IMG/VR virus record: IMGVR_UViG_3300013103_000005 | Span: 1 to 64,000 of that record | Origin: a virus | DNA: 64,000 nucleotides | Strand: one strand, 5' to 3' | Shown here: positions 4,946-63,869 of the stretch, piece after piece | Layout: the number at the start of each line of letters is the position of its first letter | Numbering within the stretch: position 1 is the first letter of the stretch | Position numbers and translations under genes: made by a program | The notes under the pieces: generated by a model | Databases searched by the model: none | What the model saw: the letters and a program-made list of their open reading frames with translations, nothing else | What the model was told of the DNA's origin: nothing

Positions 4946-5737
4946 ATGAAGAAAGGAAAGGTAAGCAAGTCTTTAAAGAGCCTTCTTAGACTTGCTCAGG
5001 AGTTAGACAGGGCTTATGTTCCAACTCCCGAGGATTATACAGAAACAACTTGGGAGGATATCGTAGAAAAGACTTATAACGATAACCCTGTTTATGATGA
5101 TGCTCGTGATGAAGTAAATAAAGCAGCAAGTCGCAAGAAGGCAAGTAAAAAAGTAAGTAAAAAAGTTTTACTCGCACAAGCTAAAATGGCTTACAAATTA
5201 GCAGAACTTCTATTTGACAAAGAAGAATTGGGCGAAGAAAAATTTACAGACCAAGTAGTAGACCTAATGTCTATGCACCCAAGAGCTCTAAGGGATACTT
5301 TAAAGCGTCTAGGTCAAGATGAGGATATCGAAGATATTCCTGATGTCGAAGAAGTCAGGGATATTATTGAAGAAGAGTCTGACCTCGATGTCGAAGAGAC
5401 AGAAGGTCCTGAAGACATCGAAGAGGAACAAGGCGTTGAATTAGGTGCTGATGAAGATGAAGAAGAGAAAGAATCTAAGAAGAAACGCACACAAGATGAA
5501 GAAGACGAGGATAAAGAAGGTCAGGACGAGGATGAGGAAGAGAAGGAAGGACAAGACGAAGACGAGGAAGAAAAAGAATCCTTCTCTGATTTTATAGATG
5601 AGTTAGTTAAAGATGCTAACAAAAAGGACGAGAAGAAAAGGGTTCAAGCTTTAGCTAAGTTGTTCTCTGAAATAAATAAAAAGAAGAAAGCTTCTAAGAA
5701 AGAAATCAAGACCCTAGAAGGTTTTTGGGAGGATTGA
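4946..5737 (+). CDS. Probable capsid scaffold protein
   Basis: Highly charged, tandem (KE)GQDEDEEE repeats; between protease and decoration/capsid genes; strong SD. Confidence 0.6.
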   Translation: MKKGKVSKSLKSLLRLAQELDRAYVPTPEDYTETTWEDIVEKTYNDNPVYDDARDEVNKAASRKKASKKVSKKVLLAQAKMAYKLAELLFDKEELGEEKFTDQVVDLMSMHPRALRDTLKRLGQDEDIEDIPDVEEVRDIIEEESDLDVEETEGPEDIEEEQGVELGADEDEEEKESKKKRTQDEEDEDKEGQDEDEEEKEGQDEDEEEKESFSDFIDELVKDANKKDEKKRVQALAKLFSEINKKKKASKKEIKTLEGFWED

Positions 5738-5786
5738 CAAATTCATAACTAAAAACTTAAATTCATTTTGAAAGGAGGTTGGTGAT

Positions 5787-6281
5787 ATGGCTTTACGAGT
5801 TCTTTATAGAGGGCACGCAGATACATTAAACGATTTAAAAGCTGAGGAGTTTACCCGCCAGAATTATGGTGCTCCAGGAATGACAAGCTCTCGTATCACA
5901 GCAGATACTCCAAATGGAGTTCTTGCTGGTATGGTAGCTTGTATGGATACTGATGGAGTAGTAAGAACTGTAAATAGTGGTTCGGATATTCCAGTAGGTA
6001 TCTTTGCTAGCGATGCTCAGGGCCCTTCTTTTGAGAATACCCCAGCAATCGCTAGCGGTAAGATAGCAGTATTTAAGTCTCAAGGAGTATATGAGACTGA
6101 TATTTATGAAACAAGAAACGAAGCTAATACTGCTGATTTGACTTATCAAGTAGGTGATAAACTTTATCCTTCTAAGAATGGTCTTCTTACAAAAGACTCA
6201 TCTACAAACGATAATGTTGTTGGGATTGTTACAAAATCCCCAGGTTCTGATGGTTGGTTAAGATTTGACTTAAGAATATAA
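5787..6281 (+). CDS. Probable head decoration/cement protein
   Basis: Beta-rich, ends YQVGDKLY.S.NGLLT...VVGIV; directly upstream of the capsid gene. Confidence 0.65.
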   Translation: MALRVLYRGHADTLNDLKAEEFTRQNYGAPGMTSSRITADTPNGVLAGMVACMDTDGVVRTVNSGSDIPVGIFASDAQGPSFENTPAIASGKIAVFKSQGVYETDIYETRNEANTADLTYQVGDKLYPSKNGLLTKDSSTNDNVVGIVTKSPGSDGWLRFDLRI

Positions 6282-6990: not shown

Positions 6991-8241
6991 TACTGCCGTA
7001 AGGCAGCGTAGTCCCCTATACCAGTGATGGTATAGTGCAAATCGGGTCAATTGCGGGAAAGACCTGTTAAGCTCTGGGTACTCCCCATCGCCGTGAGGTA
7101 GATGGTATAGTAAAAAGCCCAGAGATAGGGTTAATCCGCAGCCGAGCATCTTTAAGGAAGCTAAAATGAGTGTTAAAGAATATAGAAAAGTTACCTGTCC
7201 TATATGTGGTAAGAAGTTTAGAGTTTTACATCCTAACGGTCATTTAAAAGTTCACGGCATTACCACACTTGAAGAATTTTATCGTAGATTTCCAGAAGAG
7301 ATGACAAGTTATACTGCTTATTCATATTCTCAAATTAGACCTAAATCAATTGAAGGGTTTGATTTGAGAGGGTTAAAAATCTCCGCTACTAAAAGAGGTA
7401 TAACTCTTCACCGAGCATTGCAATTAAAAAAGAAAGAAAAGGAATTTAAGAAGTACGCTGAAGAAGGTGAAGAGTTAGTTACTTGTAAAATATGCGGAGG
7501 TAGATTTAAGAGGCTCGCAGCTCATTTGCATTATAAACACGGAATAACGACCAAAGAATATTTGGATTTGTTTAAGGGAGGATTGACTTGTTCCAAGAAA
7601 TCAGGGCGGAAGACTGCTGAAACTTGTAATGCTAAAGGAATTTTACAAAAGGCAAGGGAGAATGCTAAAATCGGATTGCTTAAGAAATATGGAGTTGATA
7701 ACCCTATGAAAGTTCCCGAAATTGTATTAAAGCAGTTTAAGTCTTCTGTTCGTCATGTTAAAAGTAAACCAGAAATCCTATTAGAAACCTTGTTGGATTC
7801 TAATTTTACTGGTCAGTTTGTTTATAATGGGTGTGGTAATGCCGATATAATGATTGGGCATAGGATTCCTGACTTTATACATACTTCTAAAAAGAAAGTT
7901 ATAGAAGTTTTTGGAGTTTATTGGCACGGTGAAAGAAGGACAGGTATTCCTAATGATGTTCATGAAAAAGAACGTATTGAAGAATATAGAAAAGAAGGTT
8001 ATGATTGCTTGGTGATTTGGGAAAATGAACTTGATGATGTAAATAAAGTTTGTAAGAAAATAGAAAGCTTCCTTAAAGATGAAGGTTCAGAGACCGAAGC
8101 TAGTAAGGGAGACCTTATTAGCGGAACCCGACATCCTATCGTAAAGGTAGGATGATGATACGGTCCGACCTCTACCGAAAGGTAGAGAGGTAGGCAGAAA
8201 TGACCTACCCGCTTCCTTAATAGGAAGTAGTAACAAACGTG
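6991..8241 (+). ncRNA. Group I self-splicing intron (1251 nt) in the major capsid gene
   Basis: P1 GGAU|UAC pairs with GUAGUCC, with a U.G at the splice site. P AAUUGCGGGAAA, Q AAUCCGCAGC, R GUUCAGAGACCG, S GAUACGGUCC. Terminal G at 8241. Confidence 0.9.
7166..8155 (+). CDS. Intron-encoded homing endonuclease (two C2H2-like Zn fingers plus Vsr/PD-(D/E)XK-like domain)
   Basis: VTCPICG..F...H...HGIT twice; YGVDNPMK; SKPE..PDF..IEVFGVYWHG..GY..LVIWE. Confidence 0.8.
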   Translation: MSVKEYRKVTCPICGKKFRVLHPNGHLKVHGITTLEEFYRRFPEEMTSYTAYSYSQIRPKSIEGFDLRGLKISATKRGITLHRALQLKKKEKEFKKYAEEGEELVTCKICGGRFKRLAAHLHYKHGITTKEYLDLFKGGLTCSKKSGRKTAETCNAKGILQKARENAKIGLLKKYGVDNPMKVPEIVLKQFKSSVRHVKSKPEILLETLLDSNFTGQFVYNGCGNADIMIGHRIPDFIHTSKKKVIEVFGVYWHGERRTGIPNDVHEKERIEEYRKEGYDCLVIWENELDDVNKVCKKIESFLKDEGSETEASKGDLISGTRHPIVKVG

Positions 8242-9661: not shown

Positions 9662-9952
9662 ATGACTCTTCAAGAAATTATAAATAAATTGAAACAATGG
9701 ACACCTGAACAAGGCGTTTTACCTTTAAGAGATTTAGCTTTAGAAATAAGAAATCAAGATATAATTCCTAAGGATATAGAATTAGCAATACAGAGTTTGG
9801 ACGCAGATGAAGAGGAAGAAGCTATTAACCTAGTTCAAAAAGCAATTAAAGATTTAGAAGATATACAATTTACAAGACAACAAAAAATCTTACCAGAAAA
9901 GCATAGATATGGCGAATTTATTTCTCTTTTTATAAGGAAATATCTTAAATGA
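9662..9952 (+). CDS. Hypothetical protein
   Basis: Tightly packed ORF in the operon. Confidence 0.5.
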   Translation: MTLQEIINKLKQWTPEQGVLPLRDLALEIRNQDIIPKDIELAIQSLDADEEEEAINLVQKAIKDLEDIQFTRQQKILPEKHRYGEFISLFIRKYLK

Positions 9953-10863
9953 GTACAAAAACTCATTCGGTAGCAGTAGCTAGAAATTCTCAATTAGGCC
10001 CTGAAGATTTAGATATTTATTTTGAAGTAGGGGGAGTTCCCACTGACCCATTTGAGATATTATTTGATGTTTATGATTTTACTACTGGGACAGAAGTCTT
10101 AATAAATCCTGCAGATAGAACACCTAATAAAATCTCTACAGGGCATTATTATGCTCCTATTTATATTCCTAGCGATGCTCCTTTTGGCGAATATCATATT
10201 AAATGGAAATATAGATTACAACCGGGCGACCCTCAATCTATCGAAACAGATGAATTCTTCGTAGTAGAAGCGACAGGTTTAGACCCCGAATTAACTGATA
10301 CAGAAAAAGAATTAGTAAGACAGTTAAGGGTTTTATTGAGAGATAACAAGCCTGATAAATATTATCATTTTATGCCTCCAACTCACGAAGAAGAAATACA
10401 ATCTTTTACTTCTGAGTATAGGTATATATGGGAAGATAGTCAGCTAGTTGATTGTTTAAATTGGGCTTGTTGGGATTTAAATAATATTCCGCCCCGTAAA
10501 TATACTTTTACCTTAGATTCAATACTAAACGGTAATCCTCATCAAAAAAGGGTTTTGCCTTTATTGTTAGTTCGGGCTGCTTGTTATGCCCTAGATATGT
10601 TAGCGGTCAATTGGACTGCTGACGAGTTTAGTTATAGTATCAACGGGATTAGTTTAGATTTAGATAAATCTTCTGCTTATAGGGATATGAAAGATGCTTT
10701 TAATTCTCAGTATAGAGAAATGGTAGAAGATTATCAAAGAACAGTGAAGATAATAAAAGGTCTCAGACCAAGTTATTATACAGTTGGGTTTGGATTATCG
10801 GGCGCTGCTATGTTAGGACCTAGAACATCGGGAAGGAATATTAGGAATTATATAAGGAGATAA
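9949..10863 (+). CDS. Probable head-tail adaptor/neck protein with Ig-like N-terminal domain
   Basis: Follows the capsid genes; C-terminal FSYSINGISLDLD motif typical of adaptors. Confidence 0.5.
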   Translation: MSTKTHSVAVARNSQLGPEDLDIYFEVGGVPTDPFEILFDVYDFTTGTEVLINPADRTPNKISTGHYYAPIYIPSDAPFGEYHIKWKYRLQPGDPQSIETDEFFVVEATGLDPELTDTEKELVRQLRVLLRDNKPDKYYHFMPPTHEEEIQSFTSEYRYIWEDSQLVDCLNWACWDLNNIPPRKYTFTLDSILNGNPHQKRVLPLLLVRAACYALDMLAVNWTADEFSYSINGISLDLDKSSAYRDMKDAFNSQYREMVEDYQRTVKIIKGLRPSYYTVGFGLSGAAMLGPRTSGRNIRNYIRR

Positions 10864-30256: not shown

Positions 30257-30417
30257 TAGGTCGGCGGGTCGTGTATTTATTTACCCATCCCTCTAACCCC
30301 CACCCACCACCCATTATATTAATACTCTATTTTTATTATACAATAAAAATAGAAATAAATAAAAATTAATGAAGAAAAATATTAATTAACATAAACACGG
30401 CATGCGGTAGGTGTTAG

Positions 30418-46288: not shown

Positions 46289-47992
46289 ATGTGTATTAAG
46301 ATTGTTCATAAAAAGGATAAATTCTTTACTGTTTGGGAATATCTTAATGAGCCTTATTTAATTCGCCTTCCTAACGAAACTTTAATCCACTTCGATTTTA
46401 TTCCTTCCTTAAAAGCTAAATATAAAATAGAAATCTTTCCTTTTGAAAAGTATAATCAATTACGACACGAAAGAAAGTTTAGACTATCTTTAAAAGAAAA
46501 CCCCGATAAAACTTTTTCTGAATTTTTTGTCAAAGAAAAGCAACCTTTGCATTATCAGCTAATTGGAATGAATTTTATTTATAACGCCAAATCTGTTCTG
46601 TTAGCTGATGATGTAGGATTAGGTAAGACTTTGCAAAGTATAGGAGCTTTAATAAGGTCTGTAATAGAGAATAAAATTGATATAGGGATTATTTTTTGTC
46701 CAAATACGCTTAAATTTCAATGGGAACAAGAGTTTGAGAATTCTTTAATCAAAGAAGTTTTAAGAAAGATTAGAATATTTAGAATTAGGGGAGAAAAAGG
46801 ATTAAGGAATAAGTTTTATTCAATGGTTTTAAAGTGTAAAAAAGTGCCAGTTTTATTATTGAATTATGAATTATTTTTGAGAGATTATATTAAAATAAAT
46901 CAAGTATTAAAGAAGTTTAAAAGAAGATTTGTAATTTGCGACGAAGCTTCCAGAATTAAAAATCCAAATACAAAAACTCATAAATTGATTTGTAAATTCT
47001 TTTCTAAATCTGAATATAAAGTTTGTTTAACTGCTACCCCAATAGAAAATGGGTTGGAAGATTTATATGGAATAATGAGATTGGTTGATAAAGCCTTATT
47101 CTGGTCTTATAGATTTTTTTGTAATAGATATTTACAAATCGAAGAATTTAGGAATTTTAAAACTGGAGGAATTTATAAGAAAGTTGTAGGTTATAAGAAA
47201 CTGGACGAAGTTAGGTATAGATTATCCCCATATTATCTACAAAGGACTACTAAAGATTTAGAATTAGAATTGCCCCGAATTTTAATTTCTAATTACCCAG
47301 TAGATTTAACAGAAACTCAAAAAGAAATTTACGAAAAAATAAGGTCAGATATTGATTGGGAGGATAAGAGAACGAATATTTTAGCGCAATTTATTCATTT
47401 GAGAAAAGCTTGTAATTCTCCAAATTTATTCGAAGGTTATTCGGGGAAATCTTCTAAAATAGAAGAAATTAAGATATTACTATCTTCAGAGCTTAGAAAT
47501 AAGAAAGTTATTATTTTTTCAGAGAGTAAAAAATTTATTAAAGAAATGATTAAGGAATTAAAGGATTTTAAACCTGCCTTTATTTACGGTGGGATGAAAG
47601 AGGGTGAAAGAGATATGCAATATTCGATTTTCAATAAAGGTAAAACAAGATTGCTTTTAATGACAAGTGCGGGGGAAAGAGGCTTAAATTTTCCTAGTGC
47701 TAATGTCGTAATAAATGCGGATTTACCTTATAATCCCGCTAGGTTAAAACAAAGGATAGGAAGGGCTAGGAGATTAGATTCTAAGACGAATGTTTTAACA
47801 GTTATAAATTTATATGCTAGGGATACTATTGAAGAAAGGGTGTTTGAGATTTTTCATAATAAAGCTAAACTTTTTTCTAAAATTTTTGATGATAGTTTTG
47901 ATTTGGAAAGGGTAAAAATAAATATAGAGAAGTGGGATAAAGATAAGTTGAAAAGTTTAATAGAGGGTAAAAATGGAATCGTTGATAATTAA
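46289..47992 (+). CDS. SNF2-family helicase/ATPase
   Basis: LLADDVGLGKT, DEAS.IKN, LTATPIEN and QRIGRA.R motifs. Confidence 0.9.
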   Translation: MCIKIVHKKDKFFTVWEYLNEPYLIRLPNETLIHFDFIPSLKAKYKIEIFPFEKYNQLRHERKFRLSLKENPDKTFSEFFVKEKQPLHYQLIGMNFIYNAKSVLLADDVGLGKTLQSIGALIRSVIENKIDIGIIFCPNTLKFQWEQEFENSLIKEVLRKIRIFRIRGEKGLRNKFYSMVLKCKKVPVLLLNYELFLRDYIKINQVLKKFKRRFVICDEASRIKNPNTKTHKLICKFFSKSEYKVCLTATPIENGLEDLYGIMRLVDKALFWSYRFFCNRYLQIEEFRNFKTGGIYKKVVGYKKLDEVRYRLSPYYLQRTTKDLELELPRILISNYPVDLTETQKEIYEKIRSDIDWEDKRTNILAQFIHLRKACNSPNLFEGYSGKSSKIEEIKILLSSELRNKKVIIFSESKKFIKEMIKELKDFKPAFIYGGMKEGERDMQYSIFNKGKTRLLLMTSAGERGLNFPSANVVINADLPYNPARLKQRIGRARRLDSKTNVLTVINLYARDTIEERVFEIFHNKAKLFSKIFDDSFDLERVKINIEKWDKDKLKSLIEGKNGIVDN

Positions 47993-59484: not shown

Positions 59485-60966
59485 ATGAAAAATAAAATAA
59501 CAATCGAACATCAATTTATATTTGCTTTACTCGAAGACCCGGGTAGGTTTAAAAAATTAAGAGGTATTAGTTCAAATTATTTATTAAATCCTGTAGCAAA
59601 ACTACTTTTTAGAAAGTTATTAAATTATCATAGGCGGACAAAGAAATTTTTAGATATAGAAGCATTAGGGACTTATATATCTTCTATACCTAAGAAAAAA
59701 TTAAGAAAGAAATTTTCAGAGTTTTATTCTGAATTGGCAACCCTTGTAGAAATTTCAGAATCTCAATTTGAATATATTTTAGAACAAATCAAAAAGAATT
59801 ATAAAAAGAAATTGATTAGTAATAAAGTTTATGATGTATTAGTGGCTAATGAGAATGAAGACAATCCAGACAAAGCAGAAAAATTATGGACATTGGGTTT
59901 ACAGGAATTGAGGAGACAATCTCCAGAAGAAGCTCCTTTAATAGACTTAGATGATGAATTATCTACAAGTTTAGAAGAATACGAGAAAATGAAGAACGAA
60001 GATAAGAAAGCAGTTCCTACAGGTATAGATTTAATTGATATGTATACGGGAGGATTATATCCTGGAGAATTGTGGTTGTTAGGCGGTTATACTTCAGAAG
60101 GTAAAACTACAGTATTAACGAATATAGCGAGAAATATAGTAGTTAATGGGTATAATGTTTTGTTTATAACTTTAGAAGAAACTGTAAAACAAATGAGGTG
60201 GAGATTTGCTTGTTGCCATTCTAATTATATTAAAAATGGTTCTGCTATTCCTGGGGTAGTTTATTCTAAAATAGAAACAACCGCTTTAGAACCAGAAGAA
60301 TTGAAAAAGTATAAAAAGACAATAAAGGATTGGTATAAAAATAAAAATAGGGGAAGAATATTTTTCTGGCAAGCACCTGCGAACACGATGGTGATTACAG
60401 TTGAAGATATTATGAATTATTTAGCGATGGATATTAGATTAGATGCCGTGCTTATAGATTATGCTCAATTAGTGAGACCTACAAAAAGAATAGGAAATAC
60501 AAGATATGAAATGACAGAGGTTATAGAGGATTTGAAACAACTAGCTTTAACTTTTAACGATGGTAAAGGGATACCTATATTGACCGCTTGGCAAATATCA
60601 AGGAAGGGTAGAAATAATGCAGAGAAAAGAGGTTATTATATTAAAGAAGATTTTAGCGAAACTTCATTTTCAGAAAGAACTTCTGATGTGATGTTATGGT
60701 TTTTAACTACTGATGAGTTTAAAGAAGCAGGTTTAATTAAATATGGAATAGCTAAAAATAGAGGTGGGCCAACTGAAATTAAAGGAAGATTTTTAAAACA
60801 GAATTTCGCTACGAATTATATAGGAACAAAAACATTAGACCAGAATGAGGTAGATAAGATATTAAAGAATTATCAAGGCGAGAAGAAAGCTTCAGAAGAA
60901 TTTGTGGTAGAAGATTTTGAAGAAGAAGGATTTTTCGACGACATTGAGGAATTTGAAGAAGTTTAA
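59485..60966 (+). CDS. dnaB: DnaB-like replicative helicase
   Basis: PTG...D...GG, G.TSEGKT, TLE, IDY.QL, Q..R and KNRGG motifs. Confidence 0.85.
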   Translation: MKNKITIEHQFIFALLEDPGRFKKLRGISSNYLLNPVAKLLFRKLLNYHRRTKKFLDIEALGTYISSIPKKKLRKKFSEFYSELATLVEISESQFEYILEQIKKNYKKKLISNKVYDVLVANENEDNPDKAEKLWTLGLQELRRQSPEEAPLIDLDDELSTSLEEYEKMKNEDKKAVPTGIDLIDMYTGGLYPGELWLLGGYTSEGKTTVLTNIARNIVVNGYNVLFITLEETVKQMRWRFACCHSNYIKNGSAIPGVVYSKIETTALEPEELKKYKKTIKDWYKNKNRGRIFFWQAPANTMVITVEDIMNYLAMDIRLDAVLIDYAQLVRPTKRIGNTRYEMTEVIEDLKQLALTFNDGKGIPILTAWQISRKGRNNAEKRGYYIKEDFSETSFSERTSDVMLWFLTTDEFKEAGLIKYGIAKNRGGPTEIKGRFLKQNFATNYIGTKTLDQNEVDKILKNYQGEKKASEEFVVEDFEEEGFFDDIEEFEEV

Positions 60967-60996: not shown

Positions 60997-61590
60997 ATGA
61001 AGAACGAAAAAATTTTGAAAATAATCAGAGAAGAATTGGATTTATTTAAGGTGTTAGATTTTTATAATATAGAATATAACCCTTCCAAAACAAAACAGAT
61101 GATAATTTGTCCTTTCCATTCGGAAATAAAACCCTCTTTATCTATTTCTGAAGATGGAAAATTATGGCATTGTTTTGGGTGTAATGCAGGCGGAGATGTT
61201 ATAAAGTTTATTGAAGAAATAGCTAAATGTGATTTTAAAGAAGCTATAGAAATAGCAAAGGAAATATTGGGAATTAAAAAAGGAAAAATCAAAATTAAAA
61301 AAGTTGTAAAGACGAAAGTTAAAGAAAAGATTTTGTTTGAAGATGTTCAAGAGGATTTGAAAAATAAATTACTCGAAGAATTGAAATTGATGTATAAGAC
61401 TTATAGAATTGTTTGTGATTTTCCTTTGTATTTGGATAAGATTTATGATTATGTTTTGAGCGTTGTTTTTGAAAAAGAAAGATGGTCTGTATCCTCTGTG
61501 AGAACCTTCCTTTCCCAATCCGAATCTTTATTTAGGCTCTCCTTTGAAAACCCTCCTAAAATTTCAAGATGGTATCCAGAAAAAGTTTAA
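60997..61590 (+). CDS. CHC2 Zn-finger protein (DnaG Zn-binding domain, no TOPRIM)
   Basis: CPFHSE.KPS...WHCFGC.AGGDVI.F. Confidence 0.85.
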   Translation: MKNEKILKIIREELDLFKVLDFYNIEYNPSKTKQMIICPFHSEIKPSLSISEDGKLWHCFGCNAGGDVIKFIEEIAKCDFKEAIEIAKEILGIKKGKIKIKKVVKTKVKEKILFEDVQEDLKNKLLEELKLMYKTYRIVCDFPLYLDKIYDYVLSVVFEKERWSVSSVRTFLSQSESLFRLSFENPPKISRWYPEKV

Positions 61591-61603
61591 CGCGTTAAAC
61601 TTT
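61582..61603. repeat. Palindrome copy 23 (CGCG), last in the window
   Basis: Contains the stop codon. Confidence 0.95.
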
Positions 61604-61701
61604 TCAAAAAAAAAATTAAAAATTTTTGTTTAAATTTATAAATTATTGGTTTATAATATTTTATGATTTTAAAATTTTTTAAAAAATTTTAAATTTTTCA
61701 C

Positions 61702-61729
61702 TTGCATTTTATCGTATATACGTTATAAT
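61702..61729 (+). promoter_or_regulatory. Sigma70-type early promoter with an AT-rich upstream tract
   Basis: TTGCAT-N16-TATAAT preceded by about 100 bp of nearly pure A/T. Confidence 0.65.
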
Positions 61730-61747
61730 ATACTATAGAATATAAAG

Positions 61748-61759
61748 GTTCTTTGAAAA
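61748..61759 (+). promoter_or_regulatory. rrn-type boxA antitermination element
   Basis: GTTCTTTGAAAA just downstream of the predicted transcription start. Confidence 0.55.
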
Positions 61760-61775
61760 TTTTAATCTTCTTTAT

Positions 61776-62240
61776 TTCTCCCGAGACCCTCAAGAGGAAG
61801 CGGAGGGTGAGAATCCTCTTAAAAAACACAAAGGGAGAAATAAAGAAGAACGCGAGGGACGGCGGACAGTCCAAGACGCACTCAGGTGGGTGCCGAAATC
61901 GGAAAGCCTACGAAGGCCAAGTAGGCGAGTACGAGAGTAATTGGCTAGGGAAACCACCGAGAAGGTCGGTCGGGGGTTGGCTCTGAGCCCTTGATGGTCT
62001 AGATGCGAAAGGCAAGCTCGCCTTTAAATCCCTTCCTCAAACCATTTCACTTCTCCTTCCTTCTTTAAAACCTAACAAAAGAACCCAAGACACTTGCTGA
62101 GTAGGTCCGAATCTGTCAAGGGTGGCTTGTATAAGCGATCGGAGCACCTGTGTCCGGGACAGGATACCTGACGGATTTAGGCTTTTCTTGAGAGCTAACG
62201 CTCTCAAGCTAATAAGGCTATCTTTAGTCTTATTAGCTAG
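61776..62240 (+). ncRNA. Candidate structured non-coding RNA or leader
   Basis: GC-rich island with many stems, G.U pairs, GNRA-type loops and two possible pseudoknots; no credible ORF. Confidence 0.5.
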
Positions 62241-62282
62241 TGGGCGTTATACATTATTAATATATGTATAGGAGGGAGGAAA

Positions 62283-62681
62283 ATGGCTAGAATTCAATTC
62301 AGAAAATTCGAATATGATAGAATTCTTCTCAAACTTTCCGATGACATTCACGGTTTCATCAGAGAAAAAGCGAAAAATATGGAAGTTTGCTGTTACGAGT
62401 ATAAAGACAGTCGCCTCCATATCGTTATCGGAACGACTTGGGATGGGTCGTTCCATAATCCAGGGCTTATTATTAAAGCGGAAGCGGAAATACTCAGAAA
62501 GGGATTCTGGAAACGTCTCCGCAAAAAGCTTAAAGAAGCAGAAGAGTTTTTCAGAAAAAGAATGGAGGGGGAAGAGAGCATCAACTGGGACGCTCTTAAT
62601 AAAATAAAAAGAATGAGAGGACATGCCGAGGCAATCCGTCGTTGGGAGTTGTCTCGGAAAAATAATAACCTTTTTTCATAA
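62283..62681 (+). CDS. Early hypothetical protein (paralog A)
   Basis: Strong SD GGAGG; paralogous to 62693..63082. Confidence 0.7.
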   Translation: MARIQFRKFEYDRILLKLSDDIHGFIREKAKNMEVCCYEYKDSRLHIVIGTTWDGSFHNPGLIIKAEAEILRKGFWKRLRKKLKEAEEFFRKRMEGEESINWDALNKIKRMRGHAEAIRRWELSRKNNNLFS

Positions 62682-62692
62682 GGAGGAAGAAA

Positions 62693-63082
62693 ATGACGAG
62701 GCACTTCTATGTTAGTGAAATATGGAATTTAAAAAATGAAAAGAAGTTCAAAAAATATATATGGCTTGGGGTCTCACCTGAAATGTTCCAAGCCATATTA
62801 AGGAAAGGCGAGACATTTACTTATGAAGATTCTCGCCTTTCCATTAAAATCGGGTGGAAGTGGTCTGAGTCGTTTCATGCCTCAGACACGACCACCGATA
62901 TACAGGTCTATACAAAAAAGCGTTCTGGATTTTTCAAACGCCTTCGCAAGAAGCTCAAAGAAGCGGAGGCGTTTTTTCTTGGAACAGAAGATGATATGTT
63001 CTCTGCCTTAGATGATATTAAGAAGCAAAAAAGAGAAATTGAGGCAATTTCCAGATGGGAGTTGTCTCGTAAGAATGCTTAA
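62693..63082 (+). CDS. Early hypothetical protein (paralog B)
   Basis: Shares DSRL.I.IG..W..SFH, KRLRKKLKEAE.FF and EAI.RWELSRKN with paralog A. Confidence 0.7.
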   Translation: MTRHFYVSEIWNLKNEKKFKKYIWLGVSPEMFQAILRKGETFTYEDSRLSIKIGWKWSESFHASDTTTDIQVYTKKRSGFFKRLRKKLKEAEAFFLGTEDDMFSALDDIKKQKREIEAISRWELSRKNA

Positions 63083-63296: not shown

Positions 63297-63653
63297 ATGG
63301 CAAGATATCTGACCAATGCTTTTAGCTTAAATATGATTGGAAATAAGACAGGAATGTTTATTGTACAGAACGCAGACTTGAAGACCCTCCGGGAAATATC
63401 CGATTTGCAATCGGTAATTGGTCATCAAGCTACTGCTGATTTACTTACAGAACTTCTTGGGCGAAAGATTGAATTCAATCGAGTAGCCCTTGAACTCAAA
63501 AGCGGGGATATATTATATGTGGTTACTGTTTTCAAAAATGGTAAGCCTTTCCGTCTCCCAGAAGGAAAGGTGCTTACTAAGGAAGAACTGAAAGGGTTAG
63601 AATTAAAGATTAAAGTTATCCAGTTTGTATCGGATAACCAGAAAGAAATGTAG
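63297..63653 (+). CDS. acrIII-1: DUF1874 (STIV B116-like) ring nuclease, anti-CRISPR AcrIII-1
   Basis: YL.NAFSLNM, S.IGH.ATA..L..LLG, NR...L..GD and RLPEGKVL..EEL, with the catalytic His/Arg/Glu positions intact. Confidence 0.85.
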   Translation: MARYLTNAFSLNMIGNKTGMFIVQNADLKTLREISDLQSVIGHQATADLLTELLGRKIEFNRVALELKSGDILYVVTVFKNGKPFRLPEGKVLTKEELKGLELKIKVIQFVSDNQKEM

Positions 63654-63668
63654 GGAGGAGGTGAGATT

Positions 63669-63869
63669 ATGAGAGGTTTCAAAAAATTATTGAAAGTTTT
63701 AGAAGAAAATCCAAATATGATAGTTAGCAACATAGGAAGTGGTAAATATAGAATAGAAGAAATTACCGCAGGAGAATTGAGAGTACACCTTTATTACCTA
63801 TTATACGATATTTGTTGTGAGCTTGGTCTGGAGAAGGAAAGAGAAGATATTAAAGAACTTTTTAAATGA
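63669..63869 (+). CDS. Small early hypothetical protein
   Basis: SD GGAGGTG. Confidence 0.6.
   Translation: MRGFKKLLKVLEENPNMIVSNIGSGKYRIEEITAGELRVHLYYLLYDICCELGLEKEREDIKELFK

Follow-up and report, generated by a model that had tools for sequence, protein, structure and literature searches.

The sequence analyzed here is the first 64 kb (the window) of the linear, 76,116-nt IMG/VR virus record IMGVR_UViG_3300013103_000005, and our subject is a GC-rich segment around positions 61776-62240, located between a primase-like gene and a small open reading frame (ORF) named ORF1. The explanation that we favor, at roughly even confidence, is that the segment forms most of a folded, untranslated 5' leader RNA of the early operon, ~545 nt in length, whose synthesis would be protected by host Nus factors acting at a boxA-like motif. 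In the proposed mechanism, host RNA polymerase would read the leader on the + strand from an AT-rich promoter region. The boxA-like motif, in the first 25 nt of the predicted transcript, would load the host NusB/NusE (S10) antitermination complex, and this complex would make the polymerase Rho-resistant and let it cross a long untranslated RNA carrying the best Rho-loading-like tract of the genome. Such antitermination operates on rRNA operons and at lambda nut sites and is reported for the T7 early region (PMC3709561). The RNA would fold in order into a 17-bp hairpin, a GC-rich region, a C/U tract, a Y-shaped domain with G.U pairs and two hairpins. The C/U tract is predicted to close the Shine-Dalgarno sequence and AUG of ORF1, whose translation would start only once this helix has been opened or cut.

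Predicted promoter region and boxA-like motif

The putative leader falls within the longest gap of the record (61591-62282, 692 nt) that is free of a + strand ORF of at least 60 amino acids. This gap is bipartite, with a GC content of 4-22% at 61600-61750 and of 40-64% at 61766-62250, the stretch of the initial annotation being at 50-64%; the record as a whole, whose genes are all on the + strand, has a GC content of ~32%. A codon-usage scan of the six frames over 61750-62260 was flat, with no frame preference, unlike the flanking genes, and the 77- and 49-amino-acid ORFs of the gap had no Pfam or PHROG match. The initial annotation of this DNA had described the GC-rich stretch as lacking a credible ORF, and these results agree with it; a protein-coding gene or gene remnant is likewise not supported, with neither codon bias nor a database match.

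The AT-rich part contains the predicted promoter region (61600-61735, + strand; GC 4-22%), with phased A/T tracts and two sigma-70-like promoters. The first, TTTAAA-17-TATAAT (61629-61657), was found by a promoter scan and the second, TTGCAT-16-TATAAT (61702-61729), by eye. A similar A/T-tract region with TTTAAA...TATAAT precedes another gene at positions 71445-71510 of the record (L041:10445-10510), where the leader is short and carries no boxA-like motif.

The boxA-like motif GGUUCUUUGAAAA (61747-61759, + strand) begins 18 nt 3' of the second TATAAT. Its first 12 nt, GGUUCUUUGAAA (61747-61758), match 10 of the 11 positions of GYTCTTTAANA, the boxA consensus of gammaproteobacteria (PMC5725501), a comparison made at the sequence level. 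The same 12-mer contains, at 9/9 positions, the whole of UCUUUGAAA, the core of the NusB-binding rrn leader element of Bacillus subtilis (PMC13753749), and each of its positions agrees with the boxA of either Escherichia coli (UGCUCUUUAACA) or Aquifex aeolicus (GGCUCCUUGGCA) (PMC3177189). A pattern merged from these elements occurs a single time on the + strand of the 76-kb record, against two occurrences of the 9-mer core. A second boxA-like motif, CUUCUUUAAAA (62060-62070), lies further inside the leader and matches 10 of the 11 consensus positions.

The same layout was then looked for in IMG/VR with the pattern TATAAT-N(8-30)-GGTTCTTTGAAAA, which returned 54 loci, around two thirds of them inside open frames and hence chance matches. 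At one locus, positions 9803-10206 of an unrelated 10-kb viral contig (L097), TATAAT-N10-GGTTCTTTGAAAA ends 3 nt 5' of a transfer-messenger RNA (tmRNA) gene called by ARAGORN and by Rfam (75.9 bits; tag GNTQLAMAA). A boxA-type signal directly before a stable RNA gene was thus found in one case among the 54 matches; this tmRNA gene lies close to where its contig stops and may therefore belong to the host, with a prophage border between it and the viral DNA. At another (L100, positions 5472-5918 of an unrelated 69-kb AT-rich viral contig), the -10 element and boxA-like motif are followed by ~410 nt that are ORF-free, have a GC content of 0.39 vs 0.29 and match no Rfam family. There, a 10-bp long-range stem begins 4 nt after the motif, the same arrangement as that of the boxA-like motif and the first hairpin described below. 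Neither contig has proteins in common with this phage, and the leaders align only across the promoter and boxA. An identical -10 element and motif thus stands 5' of an RNA that is structured and apparently not translated in each of three unrelated sequences, all of them AT-rich. In the 32 genomes of a phylum to which an unrelated metagenome-assembled genome belongs, GGTTCTTTGAAAA gave 19 matches vs 12 for a control pattern, none of them beside an Rfam RNA, which is uninformative.

Predicted folding of the leader and proposed closure of the ORF1 start

Folding energies of the separate blocks were compared on each strand with those of 200 dinucleotide shuffles. The whole GC-rich stretch folds at a z score of -5.2 on the + strand and -4.0 on the - strand, and all the motifs listed in the initial annotation were recovered at or near the places given there (TTCTCCC/GGGAGAA, ACCCTC/GAGGGT, AAGAGGA/TCCTCTT, GCCTAC/GTAGGC with the loop GGCCAA, two copies of TTGGCT, and hairpins at 62187-62208 and 62209-62240). 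The description of the stretch as highly structured held for the first block and the terminal hairpins and, more weakly, for the stem with G.U pairs, all of which beat their shuffles, but it did not hold for the second block.

The first block (61766-61849, + strand) is a 17-bp perfect homopyrimidine/homopurine stem around ACCCUC/GAGGGU and AAGAGGA/UCCUCUU. The stem corresponds to a perfect inverted repeat, 61766-61782/61833-61849, which includes TTCTCCC/GGGAGAA and is the longest of the record, the next being 12 bp. Its z score (61764-61851) is -5.9 on either strand, and this symmetry makes a role at the DNA level possible. On the RNA, the inner pairs modeled within the stem could form a pseudoknot or be alternatives to each other, and the stem itself is a plausible candidate for an RNase III-type processing or stabilizing hairpin.

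The second block (61850-62020, + strand) has a GC content of 59% and is 37% G, with several short helices and GNRA-type loops. After the C/U tract comes the third block, a Y-shaped domain (62103-62184, + strand) in which a basal stem closes two hairpins; its z scores (62099-62187) are -2.4 (+) and -0.8 (-). The basal stem had been described as 16 bp with four G.U pairs. The stem and the four G.U pairs were found again (62103-62118/62169-62184), but it consists of 15 pairs and one C.A mismatch. The last element consists of two abutting hairpins (62187-62240, + strand), one with a 9-bp stem (CUUGAGAGC/GCUCUCAAG) and one with a 12-14-bp stem containing one G.U pair (CUAAUAAGGCUA/UAGUCUUAUUAG). 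Their z scores (62185-62252) are -6.5 (+) and -5.7 (-), neither is followed by a U-tail, and an alternative long hairpin (62196-62249) competes with the first of them. In the second and third blocks, the + strand is 14-22 kcal/mol more stable than its complement. This excess, along with the G.U pairs, argues for an RNA read from the + strand, and the use made earlier of the G.U pairs as an argument for RNA is supported. Selection for RNA stability would fit the high GC content of the leader in a 32% GC genome whose proteins look thermophilic (IVYWREL 0.428, from which a growth temperature near 66°C is roughly estimated).

The C/U tract (62021-62080, + strand) comprises 60 nt, with 21 C and no G, and holds both an anti-Shine-Dalgarno/anti-AUG segment (62042-62061) and CUUCUUUAAAA. 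It is the second-longest G-free run on the + strand of a phage whose transcriptome is otherwise purine-rich (57.7% purine). The interval 62017-62094 (28 C, 3 G) has the top C minus G value of all + strand 78-nt intervals (z +5.2) and, by composition, is the strongest Rho-loading-like stretch in the record. Resemblances of the tract to 46357-46419 and to the end of the primase-like ORF did not exceed the low-complexity level.

The predicted partner of the tract is the Shine-Dalgarno sequence AGGAGGGAGG and AUG of ORF1 (62270-62285, + strand). Pairing of 62042-62061 with AGGAGGGAGGAAAAUGG (62270-62286) is predicted with a probability of 0.8-0.99 at 37, 55, 65 and 75°C. The duplex (-22.2 kcal/mol) ranks third among 70 gene starts, and the segment is the second-best partner locus for the ORF1 start in the record; 39-49 of 2000 composition-matched shuffles of the tract equaled it. 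The Y-shaped domain and both hairpins would be enclosed by this long-range helix, which spans 210 nt. A 21-codon ATG ORF (MRKASSPLNPFLKPFHFSFLL, 62003-62068) crosses the C/U tract and stops just past the anti-Shine-Dalgarno segment. If translated, it would open the helix closing the ORF1 start; it has no Shine-Dalgarno sequence and was not adopted.

This arrangement bears on the proposal that the stretch encodes one or more novel ncRNAs (non-coding RNAs). Its non-coding nature, the promoter-like region on its 5' side, the + strand pairing and the lack of a family all stood, but its separateness from the 5' leader of the early mRNA was not established. No U-tailed terminator was found between the folded part and ORF1, only 42 nt separate the last hairpin from the AUG, leaving no room for a promoter, and the C/U tract is predicted to pair with the ribosome-binding site. 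Canonical U-tailed terminators are present elsewhere in this phage. One strong example stands at a module border (30257-30353), where a G-rich and then C-rich stem leads into a U-rich tail and a run of 78 nt that contains no G.

Near-identical strain fragments were found in a marine-metagenome run, in which 61712-62014 had no cover. A strain contig over 62079-62254 has three listed substitutions: G62137A, located in an internal loop; G62158A, in the loop of a hairpin; and A62171G, by which one A-U pair of the long stem becomes G.U. The three substitutions all fit the modeled fold, yet they prove little, the chance of this outcome being about one in three by a rough estimate. Where this second strain covers the leader (62079-62278), the identity is 97.7-100%. 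Another strain contig joins 62278 to 62689 and represents a near-identical strain without ORF1, with 62233-62278 unchanged. This loss of ORF1 reflects a recombination between the two Shine-Dalgarno regions, and the remaining ORF differs at 25 of 207 positions.

Alternative explanations and genomic context

Several observations weigh against a Nus-protected leader RNA. The boxA call concerns a 12-13-nt motif in an AT-rich genome that was looked for deliberately, and the 12-mer shows no enrichment in the window when one mismatch is allowed (2 occurrences vs 1.7 expected); the argument is therefore its position and not its count. The second block (61852-62022) has the motifs described for it, but its fold is no better than that of its shuffles (z -1.5 on the + strand and -0.4 on the - strand), the chance level for its composition. 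The first block and the terminal hairpins are strand-symmetric and could act as DNA. As for the ORF1 start, pairing of a pyrimidine tract with a purine-rich Shine-Dalgarno sequence is partly expected, and the tract has even better partners in the gene starts at 63669 (-24.4 kcal/mol) and 1111 (-23.9 kcal/mol). The sequencing-run search listed no RNA runs holding the sequence, the sole run found with it being the marine-metagenome DNA run. Finally, no usable relatives were found among phage and plasmid records, IMG/VR, JGI metagenomes, GTDB genomes and 5.8 billion proteins, with the leader RNA, DNA patterns, a 15-mer and an 18-mer, and the primase-like, ORF1, DnaB, PolA and P0006 proteins as queries.

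The leader belongs to no catalogued RNA family. Rfam 15, whose families include riboswitches, ribozymes, GOLLD, ROOL, OLE, HEARO, 6S RNA, RNase P, signal recognition particle RNA, tmRNA and group I/II introns, gave no match when run on the whole window at the gathering score, and a search of three sub-stretches at E <= 10 gave only chance microRNA- or small nucleolar RNA-type matches on the hairpins, with none in the second block even at E 10. ARAGORN found no tRNA or tmRNA. The initial annotation had found no match to tRNA, tmRNA or other known RNAs by inspection, and the Rfam and ARAGORN searches lead to the same conclusion. RNase P, signal recognition particle RNA, 6S RNA and tmRNA were also considered by eye and dropped, with no Rfam match. 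A group I intron was rejected, as exons are absent and the upstream ORF has its own stop, after which a promoter comes next, and so was a hammerhead ribozyme, given that UUGAUGG...CGAAAG occurs without a stem II. No sign of a reverse transcriptase, as expected of a retron or a diversity-generating retroelement, was noticed, though no search aimed at one was made.

The strongest of the alternatives, which we consider possible but clearly less probable than the leader, is a stand-alone stable ncRNA or several, possibly cut from the leader and acting in trans. Such an RNA might, for instance, serve in host takeover, or its pyrimidine-rich sequence might act against the Shine-Dalgarno sequences of phage or host mRNAs, as a regulator or a sponge; boxA would then only secure its synthesis. 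A leader of the boxA type is characteristic of stable RNAs, and in L097 the motif stands 5' of a tmRNA gene. The perfect 17-bp helix right after the boxA-like motif could be a processing site, and several further gene starts are strong predicted partners of the C/U tract. The stretch is also a GC island in an AT-rich, thermophile-like genome, and Klein, Misulovin and Eddy reportedly found in 2002 that GC islands mark RNA genes in AT-rich thermophiles. However, such an RNA would have no terminator or defined 3' end before ORF1 and matches no family, and its second block is not significantly structured. A broader form of the same idea is that this element and the L100 leader represent an undescribed phage habit, in which a host boxA of the rRNA type is used to make a stable folded RNA of several hundred nt first in infection that acts itself (e.g., as an anti-Shine-Dalgarno sponge or host-takeover RNA) and is not merely a leader. 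We view this as improbable. The anti-defence decoy suggested in the initial annotation found no support beyond the proximity of the AcrIII-1 gene, which was itself confirmed 1 kb downstream (PF08960, 6e-17); the stretch has no repeat-like units, such as those by which an RNA anti-CRISPR ('Racr') would mimic the CRISPR repeat of its host.

An element acting as DNA, either a replication origin or a protein-binding control region, appears unlikely. The AT-rich part would be the unwinding element (GC is 4-10% at 61600-61700), and the inverted repeats would be binding or cruciform sites, in line with the 17-bp repeat being equal on both strands. The location, directly after genes for DnaB and a zinc-ribbon primase-like protein, is compatible with an origin. 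In a variant of this explanation, the transcript would prime DNA synthesis, as ColE1 RNA II does for Pol I. Neither the DnaG catalytic domain (PF08275) nor the Toprim domain (PF13155) was detected in the 76-kb record, though DnaB and PolA are present, which favors a DNA-level role in general. The record is estimated to be only 18% complete, so a primase may lie elsewhere. Against it, a pyrimidine-rich RNA tract such as this one would hybridize only weakly with DNA. Direct repeat units of more than 10 nt and iterons were absent from 61766-62250, and a role as duplex DNA leaves unexplained the G.U-dependent, + strand-only stability of the second and third blocks.

The poorest candidate, and an even less probable one, is a functionless segment that lengthens the leader, either what is left of a vanished gene, rich in GC, or foreign DNA that was captured or is mobile; the second block is GC-rich yet unstructured beyond chance and the 3' end of the primase-like ORF shows a weak similarity to parts of the leader (TCCGAATCT, TTTAGGCT; 61536-61566 vs 62016-62049), but these similarities are at the level of other low-complexity pairs in the genome, a coding signal is absent, none of the frames and none of the collections gave a database match, no target-site duplications surround the 17-bp repeat, and 62079-62278 keeps an identity of 97.7-100% in the strain that lost ORF1. 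A miniature inverted-repeat transposable element was rejected separately, the 17-bp repeats having neither target-site duplications nor other copies.

Upstream of the leader are genes encoding UDG-PolA, a methyltransferase-like ORF and a DnaB-type helicase (59485-60966), followed by the primase-like ORF (60997-61590, 197 amino acids), which has only the CHC2 zinc ribbon of DnaG (Pfam, 1e-20) and a C-terminal half of no assigned family. Downstream, ORF1 (62283-62681) and ORF2 (start at 62693) are paralogous orphans with 49% identity. Neither has a family match or similarity to lambda N, and an ESM Atlas search with ORF1 gave no informative match. Further 3' are small ORFs that include the AcrIII-1/DUF1874 gene (63297-63653). 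The best relative of DnaB, identified by an exhaustive HMMER search, was P0006 (45% identity) on a 15-kb Logan contig. Loci with the primase zinc finger had no comparable gap, and G001 and G002 were not kin. The phage is nearly an orphan. Complementarity of the leader RNA to the rest of the genome was at chance level only.

Other structured sequences were noticed in the record. The palindrome AAAGTTTAACGCGTTAAACTTT occurs in ~30 copies, from 2718 to 61586 in the window and beyond, at gene junctions and usually 5-20 nt 5' of a Shine-Dalgarno sequence. One copy (61582-61603) closes the primase-like gene, just 5' of the AT-rich promoter region. Its stem is almost wholly A-U, so that it would terminate poorly when the temperature is high. 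Another non-coding island, with a GC content of 0.48 and nested stems, lies at 6995-7165, just 5' of a head-module gene starting at 7167; its fold z scores are -3.7 (+) and -2.1 (-), and it has no Rfam match at the gathering score. ORF2 contains strong hairpins at 62802-62842 and 62759-62798, one with a 12-bp perfect GC-rich stem and one with a 14-bp stem containing G.U.

Comparison with known systems

The region remains a candidate, and the RNA-level controls proposed here, the boxA-like motif with the Rho-loading-like tract and the anti-Shine-Dalgarno closure, are each directly testable. If the boxA reading is true, rRNA-style antitermination by Nus factors would operate, beyond lambda and T7, also in an AT-rich marine phage with thermophile-like features, on its early operon, where the signal would guard a long folded untranslated RNA and not a coding message. 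Since the leader precedes an anti-defence island with AcrIII-1, it may set the timing and level of counter-defence expression.

In T7, according to the account of Savalia 2010 cited in PMC3709561, boxA lies behind the early promoters. Like the leaders of rrn operons and the T7 early region, the sequence described here combines a host-type promoter, AT-rich on its upstream side, with a boxA-like motif among the first ~25 nt of the transcript and a long untranslated, folded RNA, and its second boxA-like motif further in recalls the rrn spacer. In contrast with rrn, no rRNA or other known RNA follows the leader, there is no recognizable boxB or boxC, and Nus binding is only predicted. The pL-nutL-N region of lambda reportedly has, in work attributed to Kameyama in 1991 and to Wilson and Court in 2002-2004, a boxA, an RNase III-type helix and a small first gene whose translation is controlled by the leader structure. 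The order seen here is alike, from an early promoter to boxA, a structured leader with a putative RNase III-type helix and a small first gene. However, this leader exceeds twice the length of its lambda counterpart, is rich in GC and lacks a 15-nt boxB hairpin. A lambda-type nut site proper was rejected, as the boxA-like motif is followed by a 17-bp stem around 50 nt and not, about 8 nt further on, by a 5-bp boxB hairpin with a GNRA-like loop, and no arginine-rich, N-like protein was found.

Two cis-acting antitermination RNAs resemble parts of the leader. conAn2, the RNA antiterminator of pLS20-type conjugative plasmids, is an intergenic element of 260-600 nt, found close to where a long operon begins on an AT-rich replicon, and has a 20-bp inverted repeat, a GC-rich patch, stem-loops and poor sequence conservation (PMC8191782). 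The leader is similar in size, in its long inverted repeat and in its GC patch, but conAn has no boxA and is found on plasmids of Gram-positive hosts. The conAn system itself was rejected, its defining protein ConAn1 (PF17362) being absent from the record at E <= 1. The put RNA of HK022, which binds RNA polymerase, acts just 3' of the phage early promoters through two adjacent stem-loops of ~70 nt, independently of Nus factors and boxA (PMC9378689). The two abutting hairpins at 62187-62240 recall it, a comparison by description only, but the leader is much larger and has a boxA-like motif.

For the start of ORF1, the closest parallel is rpoS. The E. coli rpoS mRNA has a long 5' untranslated region in which an upstream anti-Shine-Dalgarno segment closes the ribosome-binding site, and Rho acts within this leader. 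Likewise, the ~550-nt leader described here has an upstream pyrimidine segment that is predicted to pair with the Shine-Dalgarno sequence and AUG across a folded insert, together with a Rho-loading-like tract. It differs in its phage context and in having no homology to rpoS and no known small RNA or Hfq partner. By analogy, the element would act most like a boxA leader of the rrn, T7 or lambda type joined to an rpoS-like closed ribosome-binding site.

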